A DNA stretch of 64,000 bases. Origin: a virus. Taxonomy: Duplodnaviria > Heunggongvirae > Uroviricota > Caudoviricetes. Positions 5,669 through 62,076 of the stretch are shown here, piece after piece. Within the stretch, counting starts at the first letter, position 1. Each line of letters starts with the position of its first letter. Location: the IMG/VR virus record IMGVR_UViG_3300043467_001216; one strand, written 5' to 3'. The notes under the pieces are model-generated. The model saw only the letters and a list, made by a program, of their open reading frames with translations. It did not search any database and was not told where the DNA came from. Position numbers and translations under genes: made by a program.

Positions 5669-5856
5669 TGAACGACTTTAATACAATATATCTTTTTGTA
5701 TTTATCTTTTCAATGTTAACTGTGTTAAGAACAGTTTTCAGGTTTATAGTTTCCCTTCTACAAGAATCACCACAAAAATTGGTTCTTAGTAGTAGGGAAC
5801 TAATATTCCTTGCCATTTCAATATCATATTGTTTAACGTATATAATAAAATTTTAA
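5668..5856 (+). CDS. small membrane protein
   Basis: TAATG coupling to upstream ORF; two hydrophobic helices. Confidence 0.4.
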   Translation: MNDFNTIYLFVFIFSMLTVLRTVFRFIVSLLQESPQKLVLSSRELIFLAISISYCLTYIIKF

Positions 5857-5858
5857 TT

Positions 5859-6308
5859 ATGAGTTTATTTACTGAATTTTCTACATTGTTTCCTTATCTA
5901 CAATCTGTTAGAAAATTAAAAAATTATTTAAGTTTTGATGTACATTTTCCAACTAGTTGGAAAATACCTAAGAAGTTTGTTAATGAACAAAAAGTTGTGG
6001 AACAAGAATCTAAATTAGATGGCCATAGATTAATTTCTTTTGTGTCGGAAATTAGTGAAACGTCTGTTGCTGATACGACATCTGATATTCAAAATATTAT
6101 TAAATATAATTTAGATAGGGAAGAAAAAGATAAGTTATTTCAAACTAAGGTTAACGAATTAAAGACTATCTTTGAAAAACAAAATTTAAACAAATTAAAG
6201 AATTTAGTATTTGATTATAAATCTGAAAGAATAACGTTAGATGACGATGATGACACCGAAGAATCCGTTGACGAAGGAAGAGAGATTGTTGGAGAGGGAC
6301 AGGATTAA
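5859..6308 (+). CDS. hypothetical protein
   Basis: start moved to ATG 5859 just after upstream stop. Confidence 0.55.
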   Translation: MSLFTEFSTLFPYLQSVRKLKNYLSFDVHFPTSWKIPKKFVNEQKVVEQESKLDGHRLISFVSEISETSVADTTSDIQNIIKYNLDREEKDKLFQTKVNELKTIFEKQNLNKLKNLVFDYKSERITLDDDDDTEESVDEGREIVGEGQD

Positions 6309-23618: not shown

Positions 23619-24539
23619 ATGATAGATACTTTTAACATAAATGACGGTAGTTTAAACAACCAAGTGTTCAACTATAATGGGAATACAGGGTGGCAAGTAT
23701 GGAACAAACCACCTAAATGTAATTTAGTGAATTTCTTTTTAGTTGGTGGTGGTGCCGGTGGTCAAGGTGGTATTATTAATTCTGCCGCCAATCGTAATGG
23801 AGGTGCGGGAGGTGGTTCTGCCGCCTTTTCATATATAACCGTTCCAGCATTTGCAATTCCCGATACTTTATATATATTAGTGGCAAGTGGTGGAACAGGA
23901 GGTGCGTCAAGTGGTGGTGCCGGTGGTCAAGGAAGTCTTAGTTATGTCTGTTCTGTACCTGATACGTCAACTGTTAATAATATATTAATGAGGAGTGGTT
24001 CGGCGAATGCGGGTGTTACAACAACAACAACTGCGGGTGCGGCAATTACTGTTGCGGATATTTTATTAGCTGAGGCTGCGTTTATTTCAGGATATGCGGG
24101 TCAAACAGGTGGTGCGGGTGGTGTAACAAGTACTCCTGCGGTTGATATAACACCAACAGGTATTCCATTCACATCAGGTGCGGGTGGTGCTGGATGTGGT
24201 TCGACAGGAACGTTAGGTGTTGCGGGGGATATCGTAGGTATTTTAGATTTCCCAATTATCTCAGGTGGTACAAATACATCATCGGCAGGTGCGACTGCGG
24301 GTTCGGGAAATAACGGATTTTCGACAAGAGAAAGTTTTACTAGCCAAAATTATAAATATCCTATGTTCTTTACAGGAGGTGCCGGTGGTGGTGCAGCCTC
24401 TAACGCAACAGGTGTTGGAGGACGTGGTGGTGATGGAGCCTATGGTTGTGGTGGAGGAGGTGGTGGTGCCGGTGGAAACACAACTGCGGGACGTGGTGGT
24501 GATGGTGGTCACGGATTAGTTATAATTACAGTTACATAA
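23619..24539 (+). CDS. glycine-rich domain protein (paralog 1)
   Basis: MIDTFNI...WQVWNKP..C..V.FFLVGGGAGGQGG...GGAGGGSA...L.ILV..GGTGG...GGDGGHGLVIIT; Gly_rich-type pattern. Confidence 0.75.
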   Translation: MIDTFNINDGSLNNQVFNYNGNTGWQVWNKPPKCNLVNFFLVGGGAGGQGGIINSAANRNGGAGGGSAAFSYITVPAFAIPDTLYILVASGGTGGASSGGAGGQGSLSYVCSVPDTSTVNNILMRSGSANAGVTTTTTAGAAITVADILLAEAAFISGYAGQTGGAGGVTSTPAVDITPTGIPFTSGAGGAGCGSTGTLGVAGDIVGILDFPIISGGTNTSSAGATAGSGNNGFSTRESFTSQNYKYPMFFTGGAGGGAASNATGVGGRGGDGAYGCGGGGGGAGGNTTAGRGGDGGHGLVIITVT

Positions 24540-24542
24540 AAT

Positions 24543-25487
24543 ATGATAGATACTTTTCACATATCAGATGGTAGTGTCAATAGACAAGTGTTCTATGCGA
24601 CAGGACCGAATACCTTCCAAACTTGGAATAAACCCCAAAACTGTAAATTCGTTTACTTCGTATTAATCGGAGGTGGCGGAGGTGGCGGAGGTGGTCAAAG
24701 TGGTGGAACAGGAACCTCTCGTAGAGGTGGTGGTTCAGGTGGTTCAGGTGGATTAACTAAAGGTATGTTTCCCTCTTCAATTATTCCTGATAGATTATAT
24801 ATTCAAGTTGGTTCAGGTGGAACTGCTGGTGTTGGTGGTACGACTAACAGTGATGGTGGTACTGCTGGTATATCATATGTTATGGTTACACCTGACACTA
24901 CTGAAACTGCACAAAATATACTACTACAAAGTAGTTTGGCGGCTGCGGGTGGTGGTCGTTCAGGTTTAAATGGTGGTGCTCTTGGTGCTGCTGCAACGGC
25001 TTGGGTATTCACTAATAATATTTTTTATAAATTTGGGTTGGTTGATACTTATGCGGGTCAAGCGGGTGTTTTAGGTCAAACAACGGCATTACCAACTAAC
25101 TTAACAATTAGTGGTATTGTAAGTGGTGGTGGTCCAGGTGCGGGTCAAAACGGTGCAACTGCACAAGAGGGTGGTTCAGTTGTTGGTGGTGGGTCAATAC
25201 CTACAATGACAGGAGGACCAGCGGGTGGTTCAGCGACATCAACAACACCCGGAGGTAATGGTAGTGGTGGATATATGACATTTACCCCTAACACACTTGG
25301 ATACACAACAGAACCATTGATATTTATCGGTGGTGCTGGTGGTGGTTCATCAGATGGTGGACCCGGAGGTTCAGGAGCTGGCGGAGCCTATGGTTGTGGT
25401 GGTGGAGGAGGTGGAGCCGGAATAACTAACCAAGGTGGTAATGGTGGTAAAGGTGGTGACGGAATAGTCATAATAACGTGGTGGTAA
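24543..25487 (+). CDS. glycine-rich domain protein (paralog 2)
   Basis: same N- and C-terminal frame as paralog 1; 3-nt spacer. Confidence 0.75.
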   Translation: MIDTFHISDGSVNRQVFYATGPNTFQTWNKPQNCKFVYFVLIGGGGGGGGGQSGGTGTSRRGGGSGGSGGLTKGMFPSSIIPDRLYIQVGSGGTAGVGGTTNSDGGTAGISYVMVTPDTTETAQNILLQSSLAAAGGGRSGLNGGALGAAATAWVFTNNIFYKFGLVDTYAGQAGVLGQTTALPTNLTISGIVSGGGPGAGQNGATAQEGGSVVGGGSIPTMTGGPAGGSATSTTPGGNGSGGYMTFTPNTLGYTTEPLIFIGGAGGGSSDGGPGGSGAGGAYGCGGGGGGAGITNQGGNGGKGGDGIVIITWW

Positions 25488-25496
25488 TATTATAAA

Positions 25497-26459
25497 ATGA
25501 TAGATACATTCAATTTACCTGGAAAGGAAAGGTATACACAAATTTTTACAGTAAACTCAAGTGGGTCAACAGGTTGGGAAACTTGGAATAAACCATCAAA
25601 CATTTCTTACATCCATATTTTATGTATTGGTGGTGGAGGAGGTGGAGGAGGGGCTCGTGGTAGTTCGCTGAATACCGCAACAGGAGGAGGTGGTGGAGGT
25701 TCTGCAGCTCACTCAATTGGATTATTTCCTGCGGTTTTATTACCTGATACATTATTCGTTCAGGTGGGTAAAGGAGGTGCTAGTGGTGTTGGTGGTGCTA
25801 AGGGTGTTAACGGAACTGATGGTGGTTCGGGAGAACATTCTTATGTGTCAGTTATACCATCAACGGGAACTACTGCGGTATTGATGAAAAACGGTACTGC
25901 GGGTGCTGATGGTGGTAATGGTGGACAAAGTTCAGTTCAAGGTGCTGCGGGAACTGCGGGAACAACTTGGACTTATAACACAACATTTATATTTCCCCAA
26001 TTAGGACAGATATCACCATTTGCTGGTCAAAATGGTGGTATCGGTGGTTCAACAGGTGGTGGTAATGGTGGTTCGATAACTATTACAGGTCCAACAACAG
26101 GTGGTGGTGGTGGAGGTGGAACAACAAGTGGTGGCTCATCAGGTGGTGGTGGTTCAATTACGGGTGTTGGGATAATACCAACTATTGTTGGTGGAACTGC
26201 GAATTCATTAACGGCTAGTAATGGTGCGGGTGGTTATGGTATGAATTTATTAACAACTGAATCAAGTTCACCAAGTCCTTTATTTTTTACGGGAGCTGCG
26301 GGTGGTGGTGGTGCTGGTCCAAATGCTGATAGAGAAGGTGGTGACGGAGGTCACGCTGCTTACGGTTCAGGAGGTGGAGGTGGAGGTGCATCTTATAATG
26401 GTAAAGGTGGTGACGGAGGTAAAGGTGGTGATGGTGTTGTAATTATTACTTGTTGGTAG
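25497..26459 (+). CDS. glycine-rich domain protein (paralog 3)
   Basis: same frame as paralogs 1 and 2; 9-nt spacer. Confidence 0.75.
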   Translation: MIDTFNLPGKERYTQIFTVNSSGSTGWETWNKPSNISYIHILCIGGGGGGGGARGSSLNTATGGGGGGSAAHSIGLFPAVLLPDTLFVQVGKGGASGVGGAKGVNGTDGGSGEHSYVSVIPSTGTTAVLMKNGTAGADGGNGGQSSVQGAAGTAGTTWTYNTTFIFPQLGQISPFAGQNGGIGGSTGGGNGGSITITGPTTGGGGGGGTTSGGSSGGGGSITGVGIIPTIVGGTANSLTASNGAGGYGMNLLTTESSSPSPLFFTGAAGGGGAGPNADREGGDGGHAAYGSGGGGGGASYNGKGGDGGKGGDGVVIITCW

Positions 26460-26493
26460 TTGACATTTCAATTTAAAAAGTCTAAAATTATTT

Positions 26494-27357
26494 ATGGAAA
26501 ATTATATAGGAAAAATTATAAATGGTGATTGTGTTGATGTTATGTCAGAAATGCCAATAAACTCAATTGACTTAATTGTAACGTCACCCCCATACGGAGT
26601 TGGGATTGCCTATGATGTTCACGATGATGATATGTATATTGATGAATATTTGAAATTTACAACCAAATGGTTAACACAAGCATATCAGATATTAAAAGAT
26701 GATGGAAGGATTGCGATAAACATTCCTTATGAAATTAATAGACAGGACAAAGGTGGAAGAATTTTCTTTTGTTCTGAGGTTTATCAGGTAATGAAAAGAA
26801 TTGGATTTAAATTCTTTGGTATTGTTGACCTTGAAGAAGATTCTCCTCATCGTAGTAAAACTACGGCTTGGGGTAGTTGGATGTCACCTTCAAGTCCTTA
26901 CATATATAATCCAAAAGAATGTGTTATATTAGCCTACAAACACAAACATATTAAAACAGTTAAAGGTGAACCACAATGGAAAGGAATGCCAACTGAGATT
27001 GAACAAGAAGATGGGACAGTTAAGAAAAAAGTTGTCTATGATGAAATGGATAAGAAAGAGTTTATGGAATTGGTGTTTGGTCAGTGGAAATATTTTGCTG
27101 ATACTAAATCGTTAACAAAAGCGACTTTCTCTATGGATATCCCAACTAAGGCGATTAAAATATTGTCATATAAGAATGACGTAATATTGGACCCATTTGC
27201 GGGTTCAGGAACAAGTTTGGTTGCTGCTGAAACATTGGATAGACGATGGGTGGGTATTGAATTATCACCAAATTATGCTGAGATAGCTTGGAAACGAGTC
27301 CAAGGATTTGTGGACCAAAAAAAACAACAAGAATTAGAATTCGAAAAGGGGGAATAA
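26494..27357 (+). CDS. DNA methyltransferase, beta-class N4-cytosine/N6-adenine
   Basis: DLIVTSPPYG (motif IV) is N-terminal; DPFAGSGTSLVAAE (motif I) is C-terminal; SPPY favours m4C but is not decisive. Confidence 0.85.
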   Translation: MENYIGKIINGDCVDVMSEMPINSIDLIVTSPPYGVGIAYDVHDDDMYIDEYLKFTTKWLTQAYQILKDDGRIAINIPYEINRQDKGGRIFFCSEVYQVMKRIGFKFFGIVDLEEDSPHRSKTTAWGSWMSPSSPYIYNPKECVILAYKHKHIKTVKGEPQWKGMPTEIEQEDGTVKKKVVYDEMDKKEFMELVFGQWKYFADTKSLTKATFSMDIPTKAIKILSYKNDVILDPFAGSGTSLVAAETLDRRWVGIELSPNYAEIAWKRVQGFVDQKKQQELEFEKGE

Positions 27358-55535: not shown

Positions 55536-55958
55536 ATGGATAAAAAGATTGGATTTACGTGTTCCTGTTTTGATTTATTTCATGCGGGACATATTATGAT
55601 GCTTAAAGAAGCTAAAAGTGTTTGTGATTACTTAATAGTTGGTTTACAGAGTGACCCCACGTTAGACAGACCTGAGAAGAATAAACCTGTTCAAAGTATA
55701 GTTGAAAGATTTATTCAATTGGATGCTTGTAAGTATGTTGATGAGATTGTGGTTTATGCGACAGAAAAAGATTTAATGGACGTATTGTTATCGTATCCAA
55801 TCAATGTTAGGATTGTTGGGGATGAATACGCTGAAGTTAATTTTACAGGTAAAAACTTACAACATATTGAAATTTATTATAATACAAGACGACATTCATT
55901 TTCAACAACAGAATTAAGAAAACGAGTAATTGAATTATCAAATGGACAAAGTAAGTGA
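55536..55958 (+). CDS. cytidylyl/adenylyltransferase (RfaE domain II / TagD-like)
   Basis: CSCFDLFHAGHIMMLKEAK (HxGH motif), LIVGLQSD, VDEIVVY and FSTTELRKRV match the glycerol-3-P cytidylyltransferase / heptose-1-P adenylyltransferase family. Confidence 0.8.
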   Translation: MDKKIGFTCSCFDLFHAGHIMMLKEAKSVCDYLIVGLQSDPTLDRPEKNKPVQSIVERFIQLDACKYVDEIVVYATEKDLMDVLLSYPINVRIVGDEYAEVNFTGKNLQHIEIYYNTRRHSFSTTELRKRVIELSNGQSK

Positions 55959-56482: not shown

Positions 56483-57196
56483 ATGAAAAAGAAAATTGTT
56501 GTATTCACAGGTGCTGGTGTTTCAAGAGAAAGTGGTGTCTTGACATTTAGAGATAGTGTGGATGGGTTATGGGAGAATCATAGTATTGATGATGTTTGTA
56601 CACCTTCAGGATGGAAAAAAGACCGTGAGAAGGTTTTGAATTTTTATAACGATAGACGAAGACAATTACCTACGGTTGAACCTAACTCAGCCCACACAGG
56701 TTTGGTTAAGTTAGAGGACAAATATGACGTAACAATCGTTACCCAAAATGTTGATGACCTACACGAAAGAGCGGGTTCATCTAAGATATTACATTTACAC
56801 GGTGAGTTGACTAAAGCCAGAGGTGCGATGTATAGTCATAAGACAAGTCCATTGGATAATATCGTGGTGATTGGTTATAATGATATTAACATTGGTGATA
56901 AGTGTGAGATAACAGGTTCACAGTTGAGACCCCACATTGTTTGGTTTGAAGAGATGCCATTCAACGTCGAGGAAAGTTATGACGCAATAACCGAATCTGA
57001 TGTGTTAATCATTATCGGAACTAGTTTGATGATTGGTTACACATTAAATCTATTATCAAGTGTTAGTGATGAGTGTAAGATTTATTATATTGACCCCCAA
57101 CCAAGTAGGTATTTGGACCATTTAGGTAAAGATATTACTTACATTGAGAAACCGGCAACGGAAGGTGTTGAATTAATTTTAAATGAATTGTTATGA
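56483..57196 (+). CDS. cobB: Sir2-family NAD-dependent protein deacylase (CobB type)
   Basis: VVFTGAGVSRESGVLTFRD, QNVDDLHERAG, HLHGE, RPHIVWFEE and IIIGTS are collinear with CobB; most zinc-module cysteines are absent. Confidence 0.9.
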   Translation: MKKKIVVFTGAGVSRESGVLTFRDSVDGLWENHSIDDVCTPSGWKKDREKVLNFYNDRRRQLPTVEPNSAHTGLVKLEDKYDVTIVTQNVDDLHERAGSSKILHLHGELTKARGAMYSHKTSPLDNIVVIGYNDINIGDKCEITGSQLRPHIVWFEEMPFNVEESYDAITESDVLIIIGTSLMIGYTLNLLSSVSDECKIYYIDPQPSRYLDHLGKDITYIEKPATEGVELILNELL

Positions 57197-59110: not shown

Positions 59111-59464
59111 ATGAGTGATTGGAAAGACGAAATTGAATTACCCTCAGATGATGAGTATTCAAAGTTTATGGATAAAATTACAGGTAAAGAGGGGTTTAAG
59201 AATGAAGCAATAAAAGTGTTGGACCATTATATCGGTTCAGAATTTGAAGAGACGTTAATGAAGAAGATACAATCTGATTTAGATGTTGTCTTAAATAACT
59301 ATTTGAAGGATGTCCCAATGTATAAAACAGATTTCCCAATTAGTTTTAACCACGATATCGGTGAATTTATTATATCCGAAAATGGGTATGTTGCATTTCT
59401 ACCTAAGAAAACTCCCCAATACATTGAAGTAAATATAACAATAAATAAAACAGGTGAATTATGA
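59111..59464 (+). CDS. hypothetical protein
   Basis: 117-aa ORF. Confidence 0.55.
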   Translation: MSDWKDEIELPSDDEYSKFMDKITGKEGFKNEAIKVLDHYIGSEFEETLMKKIQSDLDVVLNNYLKDVPMYKTDFPISFNHDIGEFIISENGYVAFLPKKTPQYIEVNITINKTGEL

Positions 59465-59537
59465 TATCAAGGTATATGATGATATAAAAAGTTTAACAGA
59501 AAATTTGGTTAGAGTTTTGAAATCAAAATAAGTTTTC

Positions 59538-59545
59538 TATATTTG
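59538..59545 (+). promoter_or_regulatory. Bacteroidetes-type -7 box
   Basis: TATATTTG 19 nt before ATG 59565; could also drive the downstream RNA array. Confidence 0.45.
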
Positions 59546-59564
59546 TAAGACAAAACACAGAGAT

Positions 59565-59831
59565 ATGGAAATTACACGCTTCGACAGACACGAATCAATG
59601 AACGATGAAACTCGTTCTGAAATCTTACAAGTAATTAGAACGTTATCATTTAGTGATGAGTCGTCTTTTAAACTTGAAAATTACTTATACGGTTTGTTCG
59701 ATGGGTATGATTACACACCATTCATCTTAAACTCTGAGGACTTCAAGAACATTAAGGACAAAGAGTTGACTGATAGAGTTACAAAAATCTTGGATGAGGT
59801 TAACAAATATCCAAGAGTGGTTTATAAATAA
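59565..59831 (+). CDS. hypothetical protein
   Basis: 88-aa ORF. Confidence 0.55.
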   Translation: MEITRFDRHESMNDETRSEILQVIRTLSFSDESSFKLENYLYGLFDGYDYTPFILNSEDFKNIKDKELTDRVTKILDEVNKYPRVVYK

Positions 59832-59836
59832 ATTAT

Positions 59837-59922
59837 TGTGTTGTTCCCTTGAGAAAGGAACTAGGGTAAAAACGGAGCATAGGAAGGGTGAAGATTGCTA
59901 CAACACAGAGGCTCTCAACCTC
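59837..59922 (+). ncRNA. structured leader preceding first tRNA-like element
   Basis: TGTGTT (59837-42) pairs with AACACA (59902-07), enclosing hairpin GTTCC-cttgagaaa-GGAAC; then hairpin GAGG-ctctcaa-CCTC. Confidence 0.35.
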
Positions 59923-59926
59923 AAAT

Positions 59927-60012
59927 AGTCAGGTAATGCGTAATGGGAAAACGGTTATCTCATCCAACTAAAAAGGGTTGCATCGTTGTGGGTTCGAGTC
60001 CCACCCTGGCTA
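59927..60012 (+). tRNA. tRNA-like RNA 1 (non-canonical core)
   Basis: acceptor AGTCAGG/CCTGGCT (U3-G70); perfect T arm GTGGG-TTCGAGT-CCCAC; D-loop-like TAATGGGAAAA; ATGCG/TGCAT helix replaces the D and anticodon stems; no CCA encoded. Confidence 0.45.
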
Positions 60013-60272
60013 CAACTTCGCTGGTTAATGGGGGTAGTTTGCATCTTGCAACTCAAGTGGTTAAGTTCGGCGTTAAGATATTAATCCTACTATGGTGATT
60101 GATTGAAATGTACGGCTCACACCAACCTCTGCAAGTTAAAACAAACTGTACTACACATTCAAAGATGGGTTACACAATAGAATTTATTCTATAAGATGCT
60201 GTGTCAAATTGAGATATGTGTAAGTATAACATCTGAAGTTTGCCTCAATGGTATTTTTAGTAAGATGTATTT

Positions 60273-60371
60273 AGTCAGGTGGCGTAATGGTAAAAGCGTT
60301 GGTCAGTGGGTTTAAACACCTAACGGTAAAAATGGGTACCAGATATACAGGTTCGAATCCTGTCCTGACTA
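60273..60371 (+). tRNA. tRNA-like RNA 2 (99 nt; 34-nt domain where the anticodon loop should be)
   Basis: AGTCAGG/CCTGACT acceptor; T arm ACAGG-TTCGAAT-CCTGT; TTGGT/ACCAG helix closes 34 nt; discriminator A. Confidence 0.5.
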
Positions 60372-60389
60372 CTGACAATAAAACTTTGG

Positions 60390-60442
60390 GGTCAGGGTTT
60401 TGTTGGCACTGAAAGGTGTGTGTTTTCAACGGTTCGAGTCCG
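60390..60442 (+). pseudogene. 3'-truncated tRNA-like fragment
   Basis: GGTCAGG 5' strand and CGG-TTCGAGT-CCG T-arm remnant but no 3' acceptor strand; abuts element 3. Confidence 0.4.
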
Positions 60443-60556
60443 AGTCAGGTGGCGGAATTGGTAGACGCTAACGGTGGTAAGTGTGATAGTCAGAGCTCGG
60501 GAACTCCTATCAAAAAGTTTGGTTCACACATACAGGTTCAAGTCCTGTCCTGACTA
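60443..60556 (+). tRNA. tRNA-like RNA 3 (114 nt; Leu-type D arm)
   Basis: AGTCAGG-TG-GCGGAATTGGTAGACGC is the class II tRNA-Leu 5' part; T arm ACAGG-TTCAAGT-CCTGT; core closed by GTGTGA/TCACAC; discriminator A. Confidence 0.55.
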
Positions 60557-60569
60557 CTAAAAATAAGAT

Positions 60570-60800
60570 ATGAATAATAGAGAACAAAAATTGATTGATT
60601 TAATGTTTGAAATGGTGTTAGTGACAACAAACGACCCCGTATTTTGTAAAAGACCAAGAGGTGAAAGAATGGCTTGGGTTGCAGATAATTTGAGGGGTTC
60701 GGGATTTGATACACATCCAATCGGAATGAGTTGGGGGGTTTTGGTTGACTCTTCATTCAGGGACACAATTGATGTTAAAACAGAAAATTTAGATAATTAA
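60570..60800 (+). CDS. hypothetical protein embedded in the RNA array
   Basis: 76-aa ORF between tRNA-like elements with normal amino-acid composition. Confidence 0.5.
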   Translation: MNNREQKLIDLMFEMVLVTTNDPVFCKRPRGERMAWVADNLRGSGFDTHPIGMSWGVLVDSSFRDTIDVKTENLDN

Positions 60801-60805
60801 CTAAC

Positions 60806-60949
60806 AGTCAGGTGGTGGAATGGTAGACGTGTAATGGGTGATTTGATTAATGGGGCCGTGAGACATCACATTAAATATGTTGACCATCCCCAAGAACCGA
60901 ATAAAATCGGTCTTTTCAAATCGTACAGGTTCGAATCCTGTCCTGACTG
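60806..60949 (+). tRNA. tRNA-like RNA 4 (144 nt; branched domain replaces the anticodon arm)
   Basis: AGTCAGG/CCTGACT; GGTGGAATGGTAGACG D region; 9-bp helix GTGATTTGA/TCAAATCGT abuts the T arm; inner helices TGGGG/CCCCA, GTGA/TCAC, ACCGA/TCGGT; discriminator G. Confidence 0.5.
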
Positions 60950-61119
60950 CTGAATTAGCCCTCTGGTGGTGCACCGCTAAGGAACGAAGATAGAGATTAC
61001 AGATATGGGTTGAAATAAAAAGACCTTCGGGTTTACACATATGTTGGCGTGGACGCTCTCCGAATCGTATGTCGGCATAGTTTGTGTGTTCTAGGGATAA
61101 TTTAAAAACACACATTTTT
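60950..61119 (+). ncRNA. structured spacer
   Basis: AGACC-TTCG-GGTTT (UUCG tetraloop hairpin); GTGTGTT/AACACAC 7-bp stem; GGTG-gtg-CACC; only a minus-strand shadow ORF. Confidence 0.3.
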
Positions 61120-61235
61120 AGTCAGGTGGCGGAAGGGATTGAGGTAACTCGGTCGTTGGTAGACGCACATATCCATACAGGGATGATGCAGTACTGTATT
61201 ACTGTGTCTTACAAGTTCGAATCTTGTCCTGACTA
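61120..61235 (+). tRNA. tRNA-like RNA 5 (116 nt; 21-nt hairpin inserted in the D loop)
   Basis: GGCGGAA[GG GATTGAG GTAA CTCGGTC G]TTGGTAGACGC; T arm ACAAG-TTCGAAT-CTTGT (compensated); TATCC-ATACAG-GGATG stem with 6-nt loop; variable hairpin CAGTA/TACTG. Confidence 0.55.
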
Positions 61236-61276
61236 CAAAAAATAACGAAGGTATTGTTTAATTAAATAAAAAAACA

Positions 61277-61284
61277 TATCTTTG
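61277..61284 (+). promoter_or_regulatory. Bacteroidetes-type -7 box
   Basis: TATCTTTG 12 nt before tRNA-like RNA 6. Confidence 0.45.
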
Positions 61285-61296
61285 AAATGTTAATAT

Positions 61297-61411
61297 AGAT
61301 AGGTGGCGGATGGGTAGACGCAGAGGTGAGGGGATATAGTAACACTCTGAAAGTAGCAGTCTCGTTACGTCCTACGGTGAAATCGAACAGGTTCGAATCC
61401 TGTCCTATCTA
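61297..61411 (+). tRNA. tRNA-like RNA 6 (115 nt; possible Leu-GAG with expanded loop)
   Basis: acceptor AGATAGG/CCTATCT (compensated relative to the others); D arm GCG-GATGGGTAGA-CGC; CAGAG/CTCTG closes a 19-nt loop that begins GU-GAG-G; T arm ACAGG-TTCGAAT-CCTGT. Confidence 0.55.
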
Positions 61412-61461
61412 CACTATAATGAATTTGGGTAACGATTTAGATACAAGAATTCATATAGTTA

Positions 61462-61531
61462 AGCGGAGTAGTGTAATTGGTAACATATTGGATTGTCTCC
61501 TTTGATGTGGGTTCGAGTCCCATCGCCGCAA
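61462..61531 (+). tRNA. tRNA-like RNA 7 (70 nt; poor anticodon stem)
   Basis: D arm GTGT-AATTGGTA-ACAT; T arm GTGGG-TTCGAGT-CCCAT; acceptor has two mismatches; the anticodon region TTGGA-TTGTCTC-CTTTG pairs poorly. Confidence 0.45.
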
Positions 61532-61545
61532 CTAAAATTTAAATT

Positions 61546-62076
61546 ATGAAAACAGTTCTTACATTCTTATTATTACTTGCGTTTAATACATTCGCACAGG
61601 ACGTTACAGTATTGGGTAGAATCTATATTGATACGGCAGTTATGTCACCAACTGAGTATACAACTTGTGATACAACAAAGACACTCAGAATTATGACTGA
61701 TAACGACCTTTCAAATATTGCCTCAGATAGGTTATCCAAAATGTATAGTTTATCTAACGATTATGATAATGAATTTTTAAATGGGGGGTTTGATTTCTGT
61801 AAAAAAGTTGCGGTAGATTCAAGTAAGAATATATTACTAATCTATGTTGATGTTAGTAATAGTTACAAGATAGATGCTATTGAAGCTATTATGGAATATG
61901 TTGATGAAGATAAAGTATTACATAAAGACATTAAAGAACTAACACCTAAAATGATTTACACAAATTATTTCCAAGTGTTTACAAGTACCTCTAAACGTGA
62001 ACACGTTGTGGTTACGTTAGTGTTACCTAATGATGAAAATAAAAAGTATTACTACATAGATACTATACCTGAATAA
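61546..62076 (+). CDS. secreted protein
   Basis: signal peptide MKTVLTFLLLLAFNTFAQ. Confidence 0.6.
   Translation: MKTVLTFLLLLAFNTFAQDVTVLGRIYIDTAVMSPTEYTTCDTTKTLRIMTDNDLSNIASDRLSKMYSLSNDYDNEFLNGGFDFCKKVAVDSSKNILLIYVDVSNSYKIDAIEAIMEYVDEDKVLHKDIKELTPKMIYTNYFQVFTSTSKREHVVVTLVLPNDENKKYYYIDTIPE

Follow-up and report, generated by a model that had tools for sequence, protein, structure and literature searches.

In this work, we ask what genes that have the shape of tRNAs can be for when they carry no anticodon arm. The DNA considered here, hereafter the window, is a stretch of 64,000 nucleotides from a lake jumbo phage (IMG/VR record IMGVR_UViG_3300043467_001216), and it carries an array of tRNA-shaped RNA genes on its + strand, at positions 59927-61531. 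An initial annotation had described these genes as sharing a Leu-type acceptor/D/T scaffold without a canonical anticodon arm, with selection acting on RNA pairing, a description that the comparative data have strengthened. It had left two readings side by side: either they are tRNAs with short insertions that need an undescribed processing route, or they are anticodon-less tRNA-like RNAs. We will first detail the array and the family to which it belongs, and then examine which of these readings holds and what such RNAs might do.

Anatomy of the array

Between 59927 and 61411, six elements combine a 7-bp acceptor stem with a T arm, the D arm of tRNA-Leu being present as well in five of them, and in all six a stretch of 36-94 nt stands in the place of the anticodon and variable arms (Table 1). 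They measure 86-144 nt, to which a seventh element of 70 nt (e7) is added, compared with about 70-95 nt for a canonical tRNA. All seven positions given by the initial annotation are found in the sequence, and its acceptor AGATAGG/CCTATCT in the 61297 copy, its T stem ACAAG/CTTGT in the 61120 copy and the lack of an encoded CCA throughout the array can be read directly. However, the acceptor strand AGTCAGG opens five copies (59927, 60273, 60443, 60806 and 61120) and not four, and what had been taken for a 3'-truncated copy at 60390-60442 belongs to a separate conserved hairpin unit of 71 nt. Of the four private helices that had been proposed, GTGTGA/TCACAC in e3 is present in the minimum-free-energy fold, while alternative pairings take the place of the other three.

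The Rfam tRNA model (RF00005) matches 60273-60371 at 49.5 bits with a 33-nt skip within the anticodon loop, 60443-60556 at 35.5 bits with the whole anticodon arm (53 nt) skipped, 61297-61411 at 30.5 bits with 48 nt skipped, and 61462-61531 at 41.9 bits. Four of the seven elements pass its gathering score through the acceptor, the D arm with its GG and the T arm alone. The 7-bp acceptor, the GG-bearing D arm and a T arm with a UUCRANY loop are there, but the 5-bp anticodon stem and 7-nt loop of a canonical tRNA (positions 27-43) are not, and it is at this place that the model skips 33-53 nt. ARAGORN with default settings detects a single element, at 61462-61532.

Table 1. Features of the array and their positions in the window.
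Feature	Length	Position	Strand	Description
e1	86 nt	59927..60012	+	acceptor AGTCAGG/CCTGGCT; T arm GTGGG-TTCGAGT-CCCAC
e2	99 nt	60273..60371	+	tRNA-Leu-like scaffold; about 49 nt replacing the anticodon and variable arms
inter-element unit	71 nt	60372..60442	+	13-bp hairpin (CAAUAAAACUUUG/CAGGGUUUUGUUG), CACU-GAAA-GGUG hairpin, 3-bp T-loop-like hairpin
e3	114 nt	60443..60556	+	exact Leu D arm GGCGGAATTGGTAGACGC; 64-nt private module closed by GTGTGA/TCACAC
small ORF	76 aa	60570..60800	+	inside the array
e4	144 nt	60806..60949	+	slightly diverged D arm (GGTGGAATGGTAGACGT); discriminator G; 94-nt multi-helix module
e5	116 nt	61120..61235	+	scaffold; 21-nt hairpin within the D loop; T stem ACAAG/CTTGT
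e6	115 nt	61297..61411	+	scaffold; acceptor AGATAGG/CCTATCT; 65-nt module
e7	70 nt	61462..61531	+	ARAGORN 'tRNA-Thr(tgt)'; degenerate anticodon arm

The elements differ in their conservation among the contigs that we fetched for comparison (designated by L numbers). In e1, a D-like hairpin (ATGGGA-AAACGGTTA-TCTCAT) and a variable stretch are enclosed by a short outer helix, ATGC/GCAT, which is a reading made by eye (ATAC/GTAT in L166) and is absent from the RNAalifold prediction. Between e1 and its homologues in L150, L166, L011, L041/L074 and L002, the acceptor, the inner hairpin and the T stem have undergone compensatory changes, both sides having changed in 6 of the 18 predicted pairs. Among the fetched contigs, e2 is found in the window strain only and e4 is likewise strain-specific, and the modules of e2, e3 and e4 have no diverged homologue there. 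The related strain L150 is devoid of e2, and it has also lost e3 and e4 together with the small ORF, a reading frame without any family match. The fold of e4, which remains under the threshold of the Rfam tRNA model, has a z of -2.4. The inter-element unit is found directly 5' of an AGTCAGG element in most relatives; its fold has a z of -1.7, and its core (60390-60442) is unchanged in 17 fetched contigs (100% identity) and still matches at 98% in L156 and at 94% in L092.

The central module of e5 consists of two hairpins, one closed by AUCC/GGAU with the loop AUACAG and one of 9 bp with the loop CUGUAU, in a fold with a z of -2.7. These loops are exact complements. The extra 21-nt hairpin inside the D loop of this copy had escaped the initial annotation.

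As for e7, it has two acceptor mismatches and an anticodon stem of only 3 bp. In L156, the one close homologue examined, the purine-purine mismatch at 6:67 is still there (G·A, for A·G in the window). The homologues of e7, at 79-97% identity, carry at the anticodon arm either a 3-nt loop on a 5-bp stem (L166 and L171) or other loops that are not of 7 nt, with no anticodon conserved among them. Given these mismatches, the short stem and the loops of the homologues, e7 is not a working tRNA-Thr.

A widespread family specific to phages

A T-arm/acceptor string of 24 nt is exactly repeated inside the window and found in at least 120 IMG/VR contigs (153 exact copies), so that the array lies far beyond what chance can produce. 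We collected 133 distinct elements of 53-190 nt, with a Leu-type D arm in 83 of them and a unique centre in 111. The exact 24-mer is present in only 21 MAG contigs from 185,579 species genomes, in no isolate, and in none of 50,697 GenBank phage records; one variant member lies unannotated in MW202828.1, and blastn found no match to the window region in any GenBank phage record. This distribution in MAGs and isolates, and the fact that the elements are complete and arrayed, lead us to reject a host tRNA fragment serving as attP. We found no paper describing this family, and its presence in well over a hundred uncultured phages suggests an apparently undescribed and widespread class of non-decoding tRNA mimics. 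The initial annotation, confined to a single locus, had missed this family and its inserts, which are hypervariable yet individually conserved. The chassis is nearly identical across phages of 26-55% GC, and this could reflect recent horizontal spread or gene conversion, not a sequence-specific partner.

The missing anticodon arm

In the family, neither an anticodon arm nor a removable intron can be found above shuffled controls. Only 2 of 83 elements show, at the expected position, a 5-7-5 arm of canonical type that includes U33 and R37, against 0.96 expected by chance. Without introns, ARAGORN makes 25 calls on the real elements and 12-21 on elements with shuffled centres; when introns are allowed, it proposes solutions for 80 of 133 real elements and for 64-72 of 133 shuffled ones, and the anticodons and intron positions that it proposes are mutually inconsistent. 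The alternative of anticodon-less tRNA-like RNAs is thus the one borne out by the canonical-arm count and the ARAGORN shuffles, and the same figures tell against tRNAs with short insertions.

Two known types of intron were considered in particular. The Intron_gpI model, which does detect a genuine group I intron in L011, has no match in the window at its gathering score, nor in 59800-61600 at E <= 10, and the inserts measure 20-140 nt when group I introns typically exceed 200 nt, so that we reject a tRNA containing a group I intron. A protein-spliced intron of the bulge-helix-bulge type, which would be one insert leaving a canonical cloverleaf once excised, is disfavored at the level of the cloverleaf by the intron solutions of ARAGORN, which are inconsistent and near the shuffled level.

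Selection on pairing and conservation of the modules

In the acceptor and T stems, 96.8% of the cells are paired and 11 of the 12 pairs have changed on both sides, a level of covariation that was reached by none of 500 shuffles. The case of e6 is particularly clear: in L150, the same module is carried by the acceptor AGTCAGG/CCTGACT instead of AGATAGG/CCTATCT, meaning that two base pairs have been exchanged in an otherwise near-identical element. The module of e6 is also 98.5-100% identical in L151, L158, L163 and L165, with different flanks. For e5, 14 distinct variants were gathered from 27 fetched contigs and the window, and its module is almost invariant over all of them, while the flanks, the D-loop hairpin, the T stem and the acceptor all differ: the D-loop hairpin is swapped or absent, the T stem and the acceptor covary, and the neighboring protein has diverged to 57% identity. 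Compensatory changes are found in other sub-families too.

The centres of the 133 elements have no common motif, and they are modestly more structured than shuffles (mean z = -0.77, with 29% below -1), which means that not every module need be a folded 'cargo'. Some copies have hairpins inserted in the D loop, and the order or content of the cassettes differs in most of the fetched relatives. The modules match no Rfam family, complementarity to phage DNA does not exceed chance, and no protein gene co-occurs consistently with the arrays (the best is found at 14 of 121 loci), so none of these gives a pointer to what the modules bind. Promoter and terminator scans stay at chance level.

Possible connection to tRNA maturation and leucylation

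The elements lie inside ordinary phage tRNA arrays and on the same strand. Their 3' ends resemble those of the genuine tRNAs: 123 of 127 elements and 197 of 216 genuine tRNAs have C74, and the commonest trailers are CAA and CTA in both (C74-N-A76). A73 is found in 114 of 127 elements and U48 in 77 of the 83 that have a Leu-type D arm, the majority D arm being GGCGGAAUUGGUAGACGC and the T loop UUCGAAU. The family therefore has the core of bacterial tRNA-Leu on which LeuRS relies (A73, U8-A14, A15-U48, G18-U55 and G19-C56), the exceptions in the window being e4, with G73, and e1, without a Leu-type D arm. In Aquifex aeolicus LeuRS, A73, U8-A14, G18-U55 and G19-C56 are critical, A15-U48 is also cited for the E. 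coli enzyme, and affinity falls by only 2.5-fold when the entire anticodon stem-loop is deleted (PMC2377443). The members of the family are thus possibly matured like tRNAs and leucylated, an efficient and accurate charging not being guaranteed.

What the array may be for

The explanation that we favor, and to which we give moderate confidence, is that these are non-decoding RNAs on a tRNA-Leu chassis, which undergo a tRNA-like maturation, are possibly leucylated, and display a variable RNA cargo. What is retained is the 'top half and elbow' of a bacterial tRNA-Leu, with its 7-bp acceptor stem from A1-U72, U8, the D arm with A14, A15 and G18G19, U48, the 5-bp T stem with its UUCGAAU loop, and A73, when the anticodon and variable arms are swapped for a different structured module in each copy, some D loops also receiving an extra hairpin. 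The genes would be co-transcribed with the phage tRNA-type genes; RNase P would then cut at A1, the 3' trailer would be trimmed and CCA added, in the same way as on the genuine tRNAs that these phages encode, and the RNA would adopt an L-shaped core. Since LeuRS needs only A73 and the tertiary core, and not the anticodon arm, many copies may be charged with leucine, and since they have no anticodon, they could not decode. The chassis would thereby offer a stable and correctly processed frame to show a variable RNA module. The modules, which are the part that differs between phages, would most likely bind factors of the host or the phage or act as decoys for them, for instance in counter-defence, and recombination between the repeated chassis would shuffle, delete and add cassettes to give new arrays.

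One can extend this explanation, more tentatively, to a single tRNA-Leu chassis that acts as a plug-and-play platform for the expression and display of a large and fast-evolving library of cargoes, with cassettes exchanged between phages by recombination in the chassis. The cargoes could then be RNA effectors, such as aptamer-like inhibitors or decoys directed against host defence or housekeeping proteins, some of them possibly multimeric through loop-loop pairing, to which the complementary e5 loops AUACAG and CUGUAU lend themselves. We regard this extension as possible, though clearly less secure.

The most serious rival, which we nevertheless hold to be unlikely, makes the chassis the working part: it would be a decoy or sponge for something that recognizes the acceptor, the T arm or the elbow of tRNAs (a host tRNA-targeting defence nuclease or toxin, LeuRS, RNase P, the CCA-adding enzyme or EF-Tu), and the centres would mostly be neutral filler, whose divergence curbs recombination between repeats. 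A chassis conserved far above the centres, the presence of several copies per genome, centres that are motif-free and on average only modestly structured, and the ease with which strains gain and lose copies all speak for it. However, the modules of e5, e6, the e1 type and several sub-families are conserved nearly base for base across contexts, with compensatory changes, and filler under genome-size pressure should have been reduced to versions of about 70 nt, whereas the element lengths are spread evenly up to the maximum.

It is improbable that the elements mainly punctuate processing, as mitochondrial tRNAs and the t-elements of plants do, by offering sites for RNase P and 3'-end cleavage in a long transcript whose relevant products would be the spacers or small mRNAs set free. 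Although elements do flank the small ORFs at 59565-59831, 60570-60800 and 61546-62076 and the spacer unit 60372-60442, most of them adjoin each other or true tRNAs instead of ORFs. Furthermore, the spacers 60013-60272 and 60950-61119 are not unusually structured, the former is deleted in L150, and punctuation needs neither conserved internal modules nor a Leu-specific core.

Slightly less credible still, and in our view very improbable, is that they are genuine tRNA genes whose short intervening sequences are removed by an undescribed endonuclease-ligase route of the host or the phage, leaving decoding tRNAs. ARAGORN with introns can draw some cloverleaves, such as an ad hoc one for e2 (60273), read as Leu(taa) interrupted by 7 nt, and its calls in the family lean slightly toward Leu(taa) and Leu(caa); large phages also often encode RNA ligases, none being seen in the window. 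But shuffled centres yield nearly as many solutions, the anticodons and intron positions proposed are inconsistent, e5, the best-sampled module, is conserved as a pair of hairpins whose loops have 6 nt, without an anticodon arm to excise, hairpins are inserted in D loops as well, group I introns are not matched in the window, and the same phages already have normal tRNA-Leu genes.

Finally, decaying tRNA-Leu duplicates or a selfish tRNA-derived repeat (SINE/MITE-like) spreading as DNA with no RNA function, which the 'pseudo-tRNAs' routinely listed in phage genome papers, the strain-dependent copy number, the flanking recombinogenic repeats and the putative GIY-YIG-like homing endonuclease genes (from a sequence motif) near some arrays could bring to mind, is the least plausible of all, as it predicts broken pairs and equal substitution at paired and unpaired sites when we observe compensatory double substitutions in both stems, preserved tertiary-contact nucleotides, the 3' trailer of real tRNAs, an orientation that always follows the tRNA array, modules conserved between unalignable flanks, and neither target-site duplications nor terminal features beyond the acceptor strands.

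Comparison with known systems

Several natural RNAs share one trait or another with the family. In cultured jumbo phages, 'tRNA-Undet' or 'pseudo-tRNA' genes have been annotated without analysis. Tenacibaculum phage pT24, whose host belongs to the Bacteroidota, has two such 79-nt 'tRNA-Undet' genes in a small tRNA cluster, with a 9-bp stem and a 4-nt loop as anticodon arm, but they differ from the family by their acceptor GGUUGUA, their class-I D arm and their lack of a hypervariable insert. Among viral and cellular RNAs of tRNA-like shape, the TMERs of murid gammaherpesvirus 68 and mascRNA go through the processing machinery of tRNAs and do not decode; they are eukaryotic and Pol III-transcribed, and the cargo of the TMERs (pre-miRNA hairpins) comes after the tRNA-like part. 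They thus resemble the family in being tRNA-like and non-decoding, but they are unrelated in sequence and the TMER cargo is not embedded.

Like the family, tmRNA has a tRNA-like acceptor and T domain around a large internal domain, and no anticodon. However, the acceptor bears U3-A70 and not the alanine identity pair G3:U70, the D stem is a real one, pseudoknots and a tag reading frame are absent, and we reject a tmRNA identity: Rfam finds no tmRNA in the window, and the lone call of ARAGORN -m, at a relaxed threshold, is reported as 'Tag not identified'. The role as SmpB partners that the initial annotation had considered is disfavored on the same grounds. Phage tmRNAs occur near family members in four of the fetched loci.

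YrlA and the bacterial Y RNAs (RF02553), also found in phages, join a tRNA-like module, with acceptor-, D- and T-like arms, to another functional module. The 5' and 3' ends of YrlA are located in the stem that binds Ro, and its acceptor-like stem is closed, which is a permuted topology, whereas in the family the RNA ends are located in the acceptor stem. There is no YrlA match in 59800-61600 at E <= 10, no TROVE-domain protein among 20 window ORFs scanned against Pfam (a part of the 64-kb window) and no Ro/Rsr gene seen near the arrays, and a Y RNA-like identity is rejected; weak matches to YrlA, below threshold (34.6 bits for a gathering score of 69), lie beside family members in L030.

The species 1 and species 2 RNAs of T4 (rnaC, of 139 nt, and rnaD) are, like the family, stable RNAs other than tRNAs located in a phage tRNA array on the same strand, and we found no described function for them. 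As in the family, the end of rnaC is formed by a perfect T arm, CCGGG-UUCGAAU-CCCGG, and then an acceptor-like strand. Yet there is no sequence relationship, and rnaC lacks a Leu-type D arm, belongs to no multi-copy family and shows no design in which a constant frame holds a variable insert; all that Rfam tRNA models recognize in it is the T arm, plus a weak helix of acceptor-like type (17.5 bits to tRNA-Sec, E = 0.59). With the T arm alone in common, the window elements are not RNAs of this type.

The closest topology is that of the engineered 'tRNA scaffold' of Ponchon and Dardel, in which the acceptor, D and T arms are reportedly kept and a foreign structured RNA takes the place of the anticodon arm, the cell processing and protecting the whole as a tRNA. 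The family has the same topology, but the scaffold is man-made, whereas the family is natural, built on a tRNA-Leu-type frame, arrayed, and sometimes endowed with D-loop hairpins. If these are indeed non-decoding RNAs that display a cargo, their chassis would be the natural counterpart of the engineered scaffold, and, should the cargoes be RNA effectors exchanged between phages, they would represent a new class of RNA-based accessory genes of phages as well as a natural precedent for its synthetic design.

Anatomy of the array

The initial annotation placed seven tRNA-shaped elements (e1 to e7) in the array, and a reading of 59400-62000 leaves them where they had been put. We will call chassis the tRNA-Leu-like frame made of the acceptor, D and T arms, and module, or centre, the insert that replaces the anticodon and variable arms. 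Five elements end with ACAGG-TTCRART-CCTGT-CCTGACT or a compensated variant, among which the T stem previously noticed in e5 is indeed there, and none encodes CCA, as had been said. The Leu-type D arm, GGCGGAATTGGTAGACGC, which we take to be that of E. coli tRNA-Leu, had been described as clear in e3, e5 and e6 and diverged in e2 and e4. This holds for e3 and e6, where it is intact, and for e2 and e4, where it is slightly diverged, but the e5 copy is split by a 21-nt hairpin. The central observation of that annotation, the missing anticodon arm, is supported by the Rfam tRNA model, which skips this region in e2, e3 and e6.

Features of the array and of its surroundings in the window (for e1 to e6, the start position)
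Feature	Position	Properties
Four tandem paralogous ORFs (306, 314, 320, 287 aa)	23619-27357	Extremely glycine-rich, GGxGG runs
Cytidylyltransferase-like protein	55536-55958	PF01467, E = 4e-15
Sir2-family protein	56483-57196	PF02146, E = 2e-38
e1	59927	Starts AGTCAGG; T stem GTGGG/CCCAC
e2	60273	Starts AGTCAGG; Rfam tRNA 49.5 bits, 33 nt skipped
71-nt unit	60372-60442	Core 60390-60442
e3	60443	Starts AGTCAGG; Rfam tRNA 35.5 bits, 53 nt skipped
76-aa ORF	60570-60800	Between two tRNA-like elements; no family match; absent from related strain L150
e4	60806	Starts AGTCAGG
e5	61120	Starts AGTCAGG; T stem ACAAG/CTTGT
e6	61297	Starts AGATAGG, paired with CCTATCT end; Rfam tRNA 30.5 bits, 48 nt skipped
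e7	61462-61531 (61462-61532 in ARAGORN)	Rfam tRNA 41.9 bits; sole default ARAGORN call in the array, tRNA-Thr(tgt)

When introns are allowed, ARAGORN returns conflicting cloverleaves for the window array (Leu-taa with a 7-nt insert, Tyr-ata, Ala-agc, Asp-atc and Arg-gcg). Folded singly, the window elements are moderately more stable than dinucleotide shuffles (z = -0.5 to -2.7). The identity of e7 as a real tRNA-Thr is ruled out by its A1·A72 and A6·G67 mismatches and its 3-bp anticodon stem, and in its homologues (79-97% identity; L156, L166, L171 and L175) the loop of the anticodon arm has 3 nt or other sizes. The purine-purine mismatch at 6:67 is A·G in the window and G·A in L156. ARAGORN still reports e7 as a tRNA-Thr.

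What had been taken for a 3'-truncated copy is instead a conserved unit of its own. Its core is matched at 100% identity by 17 fetched contigs, at 98% by L156 and at 94% by L092, and most relatives have the unit directly 5' of an AGTCAGG element. It is predicted to fold into a 13-bp hairpin, of which its GGTCAGG forms the 3' half, a hairpin with a GAAA tetraloop and a 3-bp T-loop-like hairpin. Possible roles are those of a processing signal or of an independent small RNA.

A large family with hypervariable centres

The family was sought in IMG/VR through an exact 24-mer, ACAGGTTCRARTCCTGTCCTGACT, which covers the T arm and the acceptor 3' strand and is carried by at least 120 contigs. Among the IMG/VR matches listed, 153 copies are found, 130 of them with AGTCAGG 53-190 nt upstream and a flat length distribution. 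De-duplication of these listed matches, window copies included, gives 133 distinct elements. Their centres measure 17 to 140 nt (median 54), and 111 of the 133 are unrelated to any other. There are just nine small sub-families. The Leu-type D arm is present in 83 elements, most commonly with loops GAATGGTAGA or GAATTGGTAGA, and 77 of these 83 have a T at the U48 position. A k-mer enrichment over all modules gave no convincing common motif, and the stability of the centres, averaged over the family, exceeds that of shuffles by a modest margin only (mean z = -0.77). The string CACCUCCCC, which resembles the anti-Shine-Dalgarno end of 16S rRNA, occurs within one module sub-family (L003 787-892, L012 and L043). 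This module is seen on chassis with different D arms, and thus appears to have moved between frames.

When 185,579 prokaryotic species were scanned, each represented by one genome, just 21 contigs had the 24-mer, all from MAGs and ten of them labelled Bacteroidota, and no exact copy was found in GenBank phage records. Judged by where its sequences occur, the family is phage-specific. One member, whose acceptor is compensated (AGTGCAG/CTGCACT), lies unannotated in MW202828.1, a complete uncultured phage genome from Manatee Spring (523-632 of our locus L179). Its module is the same as in the IMG/VR loci L073 and L099, and a second element containing a T arm comes next, at about 640-700.

Selection on the chassis and on the modules

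As the census was seeded with the exact 24-mer, the invariance of the chassis among seeds is partly built in, and the covariation test was therefore limited to non-seed copies, which were found by approximate sequence match with no requirement for pairing. In these copies, 96.8% of the stem cells are paired, and both partners have changed in 11 of the 12 pairs of the acceptor and T stems. None of 500 shuffles attains any of the five measures, and sliding the partner columns by 1 to 3 positions makes pairing drop to 28-50%. Compensated chassis include AGTTAGA/TCTAACT with ACGAG/CTCGT (L058), and acceptors AGCCAAG/CTTGGCT (L067, L076) and AGTTGTG/CACAACT (L022). The clearest single case of pairing exchange is that of e6, compared between the window and L150, a second strain of the window phage from a different lake assembly: apart from one T-loop base, the two copies differ by the exchange of two acceptor pairs, which are U3-A70 and C4-G69 in L150 but A3-U70 and U4-A69 in the window.

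For the modules, the flanking-protein route to close IMG/VR relatives gave patchy matches, while exact-protein look-ups and a metagenome scan gave usable ones. Diverged arrays were obtained through homologues of the downstream 176-aa protein and one metagenome scan for the e5 module. The comparative tests of window modules cover e1, e5 and e6; e2, e3 and e4 are strain-specific. The 14 distinct e5 variants share a 44-nt centre that hardly varies, 23 of its positions being fixed by the search pattern. Four of the 21 free positions vary, and two of these four change, within a 9-bp hairpin, a U·G pair into C-G and a G·U pair into A-U. The flanks are unalignable as far as position 1 and just past the discriminator, and the 176-aa neighbour protein is just 57% identical in some of the contigs that bear e5. 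Around this centre, the D-loop hairpin has two distinct forms whose pairs covary, or is missing, the T stem is ACAAG/CTTGT or ACAGG/CCTGT, and the acceptor has one further compensated pair. The e6 module keeps 98.5-100% identity over five different contexts, the e1 type shows both-side changes in 6 of 18 predicted pairs, and compensated helices are seen in other sub-families too, such as TTGAA/TTCAA vs AGCAA/TTGCT on either side of a conserved GCTGGGTAA loop.

The selection on RNA structure proposed in the initial annotation is therefore borne out by the both-side stem changes that no shuffle could match and, as far as these substitution patterns can tell, it acts on the RNA of chassis and modules alike. 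That the chassis alone serves as a decoy or sponge with the centres as filler, as the largely unrelated centres might suggest, is unlikely beside the conserved e5 and e6 modules.

Two loops of e5 (61120-61235), AUACAG (61174-61179) and CUGUAU (61193-61198), are exact 6-nt complements that are kept in all variants, AUACAG and half of CUGUAU being fixed by the search pattern. This complementarity suggests a kissing interaction, possibly intermolecular. As a general feature, loop-loop complementarity is at chance level, since e5 is the only case among 56 two-loop elements.

Cassette turnover and genomic context

L150 lacks e2, e3, e4, the 76-aa ORF and one spacer, and its e6 precedes e5, with breakpoints that fall within the chassis repeats. 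Most of about 30 related contigs also differ in which elements they contain and in what order. From these comparisons, the arrays are cassette-like. In other phages, the elements are found within ordinary tRNA arrays, on the same strand and beside genuine tRNAs that include normal tRNA-Leu genes with different acceptors. The nucleotide after the discriminator is C in 123 of 127 elements and in 197 of 216 tRNAs, CAA and CTA being the commonest triplets in both, and the discriminator is an A in 90% of the elements vs 63% of the tRNAs. This C-N-A trailer (mostly CAA or CTA), which stands in place of CCA in genuine tRNAs of loci L001-L120 and at 60013, 60372, 60557, 61236, 61412 and 61532 of the window, looks like a degenerate CCA or a phage- or host-specific 3'-processing signal. 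That the elements themselves are processing punctuation, a reading to be weighed against the conserved modules, is very improbable.

Other structured RNAs are found at no more than a few kb from family members (L030 1477-1884; L075 553-939; L016 5468-5866; L014 1088-1533; L011 7609-8193), namely a GOLLD RNA (298.8 bits), four phage tmRNAs and a group I intron (97.8 bits). In L011, the intron abuts the tmRNA match with a 6-nt overlap, so that the tmRNA gene may be interrupted. The phages that bear the family have dense non-coding-RNA islands.

No consistent partner protein was found when 2,003 ORFs from 121 loci were clustered, the best cluster being present in 14 loci. Pfam and PHROGs scans of the neighbouring window ORFs were uninformative except for the cytidylyltransferase-like and Sir2 genes, which lie just upstream of the array amid small ORFs of no known kind. 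These two genes may point to a link with NAD metabolism or counter-defence. A SIR2 gene is found downstream of the array in the relative L151. Elsewhere in the window, the glycine-rich ORFs form its sole GC peak (46% vs about 30%).

In promoter and terminator scans, sigma-70-type sites were at chance and the Bacteroidota-type TAnnTTTG was marginally enriched (116 window matches vs 102 expected). Two of its matches lie at 59538-59545, 20 nt upstream of the ORF preceding the array, and at 61277-61284, 13 nt upstream of e6. A Bacteroidota host is suggested by the labels of the MAGs and by the example of Tenacibaculum phage pT24. The window phage, which comes from a freshwater lake, is probably a jumbo phage, since contigs of 0.2-1 Mb carry an exact copy of its 176-aa neighbour protein.

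Decoding, splicing and other readings

Without introns, ARAGORN calls tRNAs in 25 of the 133 elements, against 12-21 when the centre alone is shuffled, and with introns in 80 against 64-72. Such near-equal rates imply that the calls are driven by the scaffold. The proposed anticodons are scattered over the family (Ile, Tyr, Cys, Ser, Pro, Gly, Glu and Leu), often with a wrong loop size, and an anticodon arm at the canonical position (5-bp stem, 7-nt loop, U33 and purine 37) fits 2 of 83 elements for 0.96 expected from shuffles. A hidden anticodon arm or intron thus gives no signal over chance in either test, and the members do not look like decoders or interrupted tRNAs on their sequences. The idea of interrupted tRNAs that are spliced, to which the intron-permitting calls might lend themselves, can be given slightly less credit even than that of punctuation. 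Extra inserts are also found as D-loop hairpins (window 61120; L061, L078 and L115), at a site that we take to be tolerant of additional nucleotides. Since tRNA finders overlook members or assign them arbitrary anticodons (Thr, Pro, Ile, Tyr), phage tRNA inventories, and the codon-usage inference derived from them, are contaminated.

The tmRNA identity was discarded, the ARAGORN -m call being spurious, and a host tRNA mimic or an attP fragment was set aside on the 24-mer genome scan, which gave MAG contigs alone. To look for a guide or antisense role, the window modules were compared with the 64-kb window and all 133 modules with 1.1 Mb of phage DNA that had been fetched; in both cases the longest matches are at chance. 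No Rfam family matches the modules or spacers at E <= 10 or E <= 1, nothing unusual was found in the structure of the spacers, and no homology to T4 rnaC or rnaD was found. Repetitive as the arrays are, pseudogenes or a selfish DNA repeat make the least probable reading of all next to the compensated stems.

A proposed model: a chassis with a displayed cargo

The topology of the family is the same as that of the engineered tRNA scaffold, which stabilises recombinant RNAs, and for this reason we favour a model in which the chassis would provide processing, stability and possibly charging, while the module would be a displayed cargo. From established tRNA biology, maturation would go through RNase P and the 3'-end/CCA pathway. 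In Aquifex aeolicus, leucylation by LeuRS depends critically on A73 and on the core formed by U8-A14, G18-U55 and G19-C56, whereas affinity falls only 2.5-fold when the whole anticodon stem-loop is deleted; A15-U48 is also cited as needed in E. coli (PMC2377443). As the family keeps this identity set, leucylation of its RNAs is plausible. One may speculate that the cargo has a role in host interaction or counter-defence, for which the high turnover of the elements between strains and their accessory-gene neighbourhood would be expected.

Relation to known systems

Phage tRNA clusters are usually seen as codon-usage helpers or as spares against tRNA-cutting defences, and their odd members are usually tagged as pseudo-tRNA, then passed over. 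At least one such odd class is large, phage-specific and clearly under selection, judging from its stems, with a constant tRNA-Leu frame and many different inserts. In phage genome papers, 'pseudo-tRNA' and 'tRNA-Undet' genes are named without analysis. A full-text literature search of incomplete coverage, which makes an earlier description possible, gave no account of hypervariable inserts borne by a conserved tRNA-Leu frame. For YrlA, tmRNA, tRNA introns of the group I or spliced kind, and attP fragments, a defining test speaks in each case against membership. The family belongs with the phage tRNA-like stable RNAs, and there is a real chance that it is a new functional class.

If its members are processed and charged as predicted, they would be a natural case of tRNA-scaffolded RNA display and a catalogue of small structured RNAs for partner screens, and possibly a pool of leucine-charged RNAs barred from translation. 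Two phages offer points of comparison. The cultured Bacteroidota jumbo phage pT24 has two near-identical 79-nt tRNA-shaped genes annotated as tRNA-Undet (LC168164.1 192032-192110 and 192399-192477, that is 5790-5868 and 6157-6235 of our locus L178), with an anticodon arm made of a 9-bp stem and a 4-nt loop, and it could be used to study anticodon-less phage tRNA mimics experimentally. Among classical cases the species 1 RNA of T4 comes closest, a 139-nt stable RNA of the tRNA cluster for which we found no described function; it has a perfect T arm and, apart from this, nothing in common with the family, yet the processing and charging of the latter, if confirmed, could give a lead on it.
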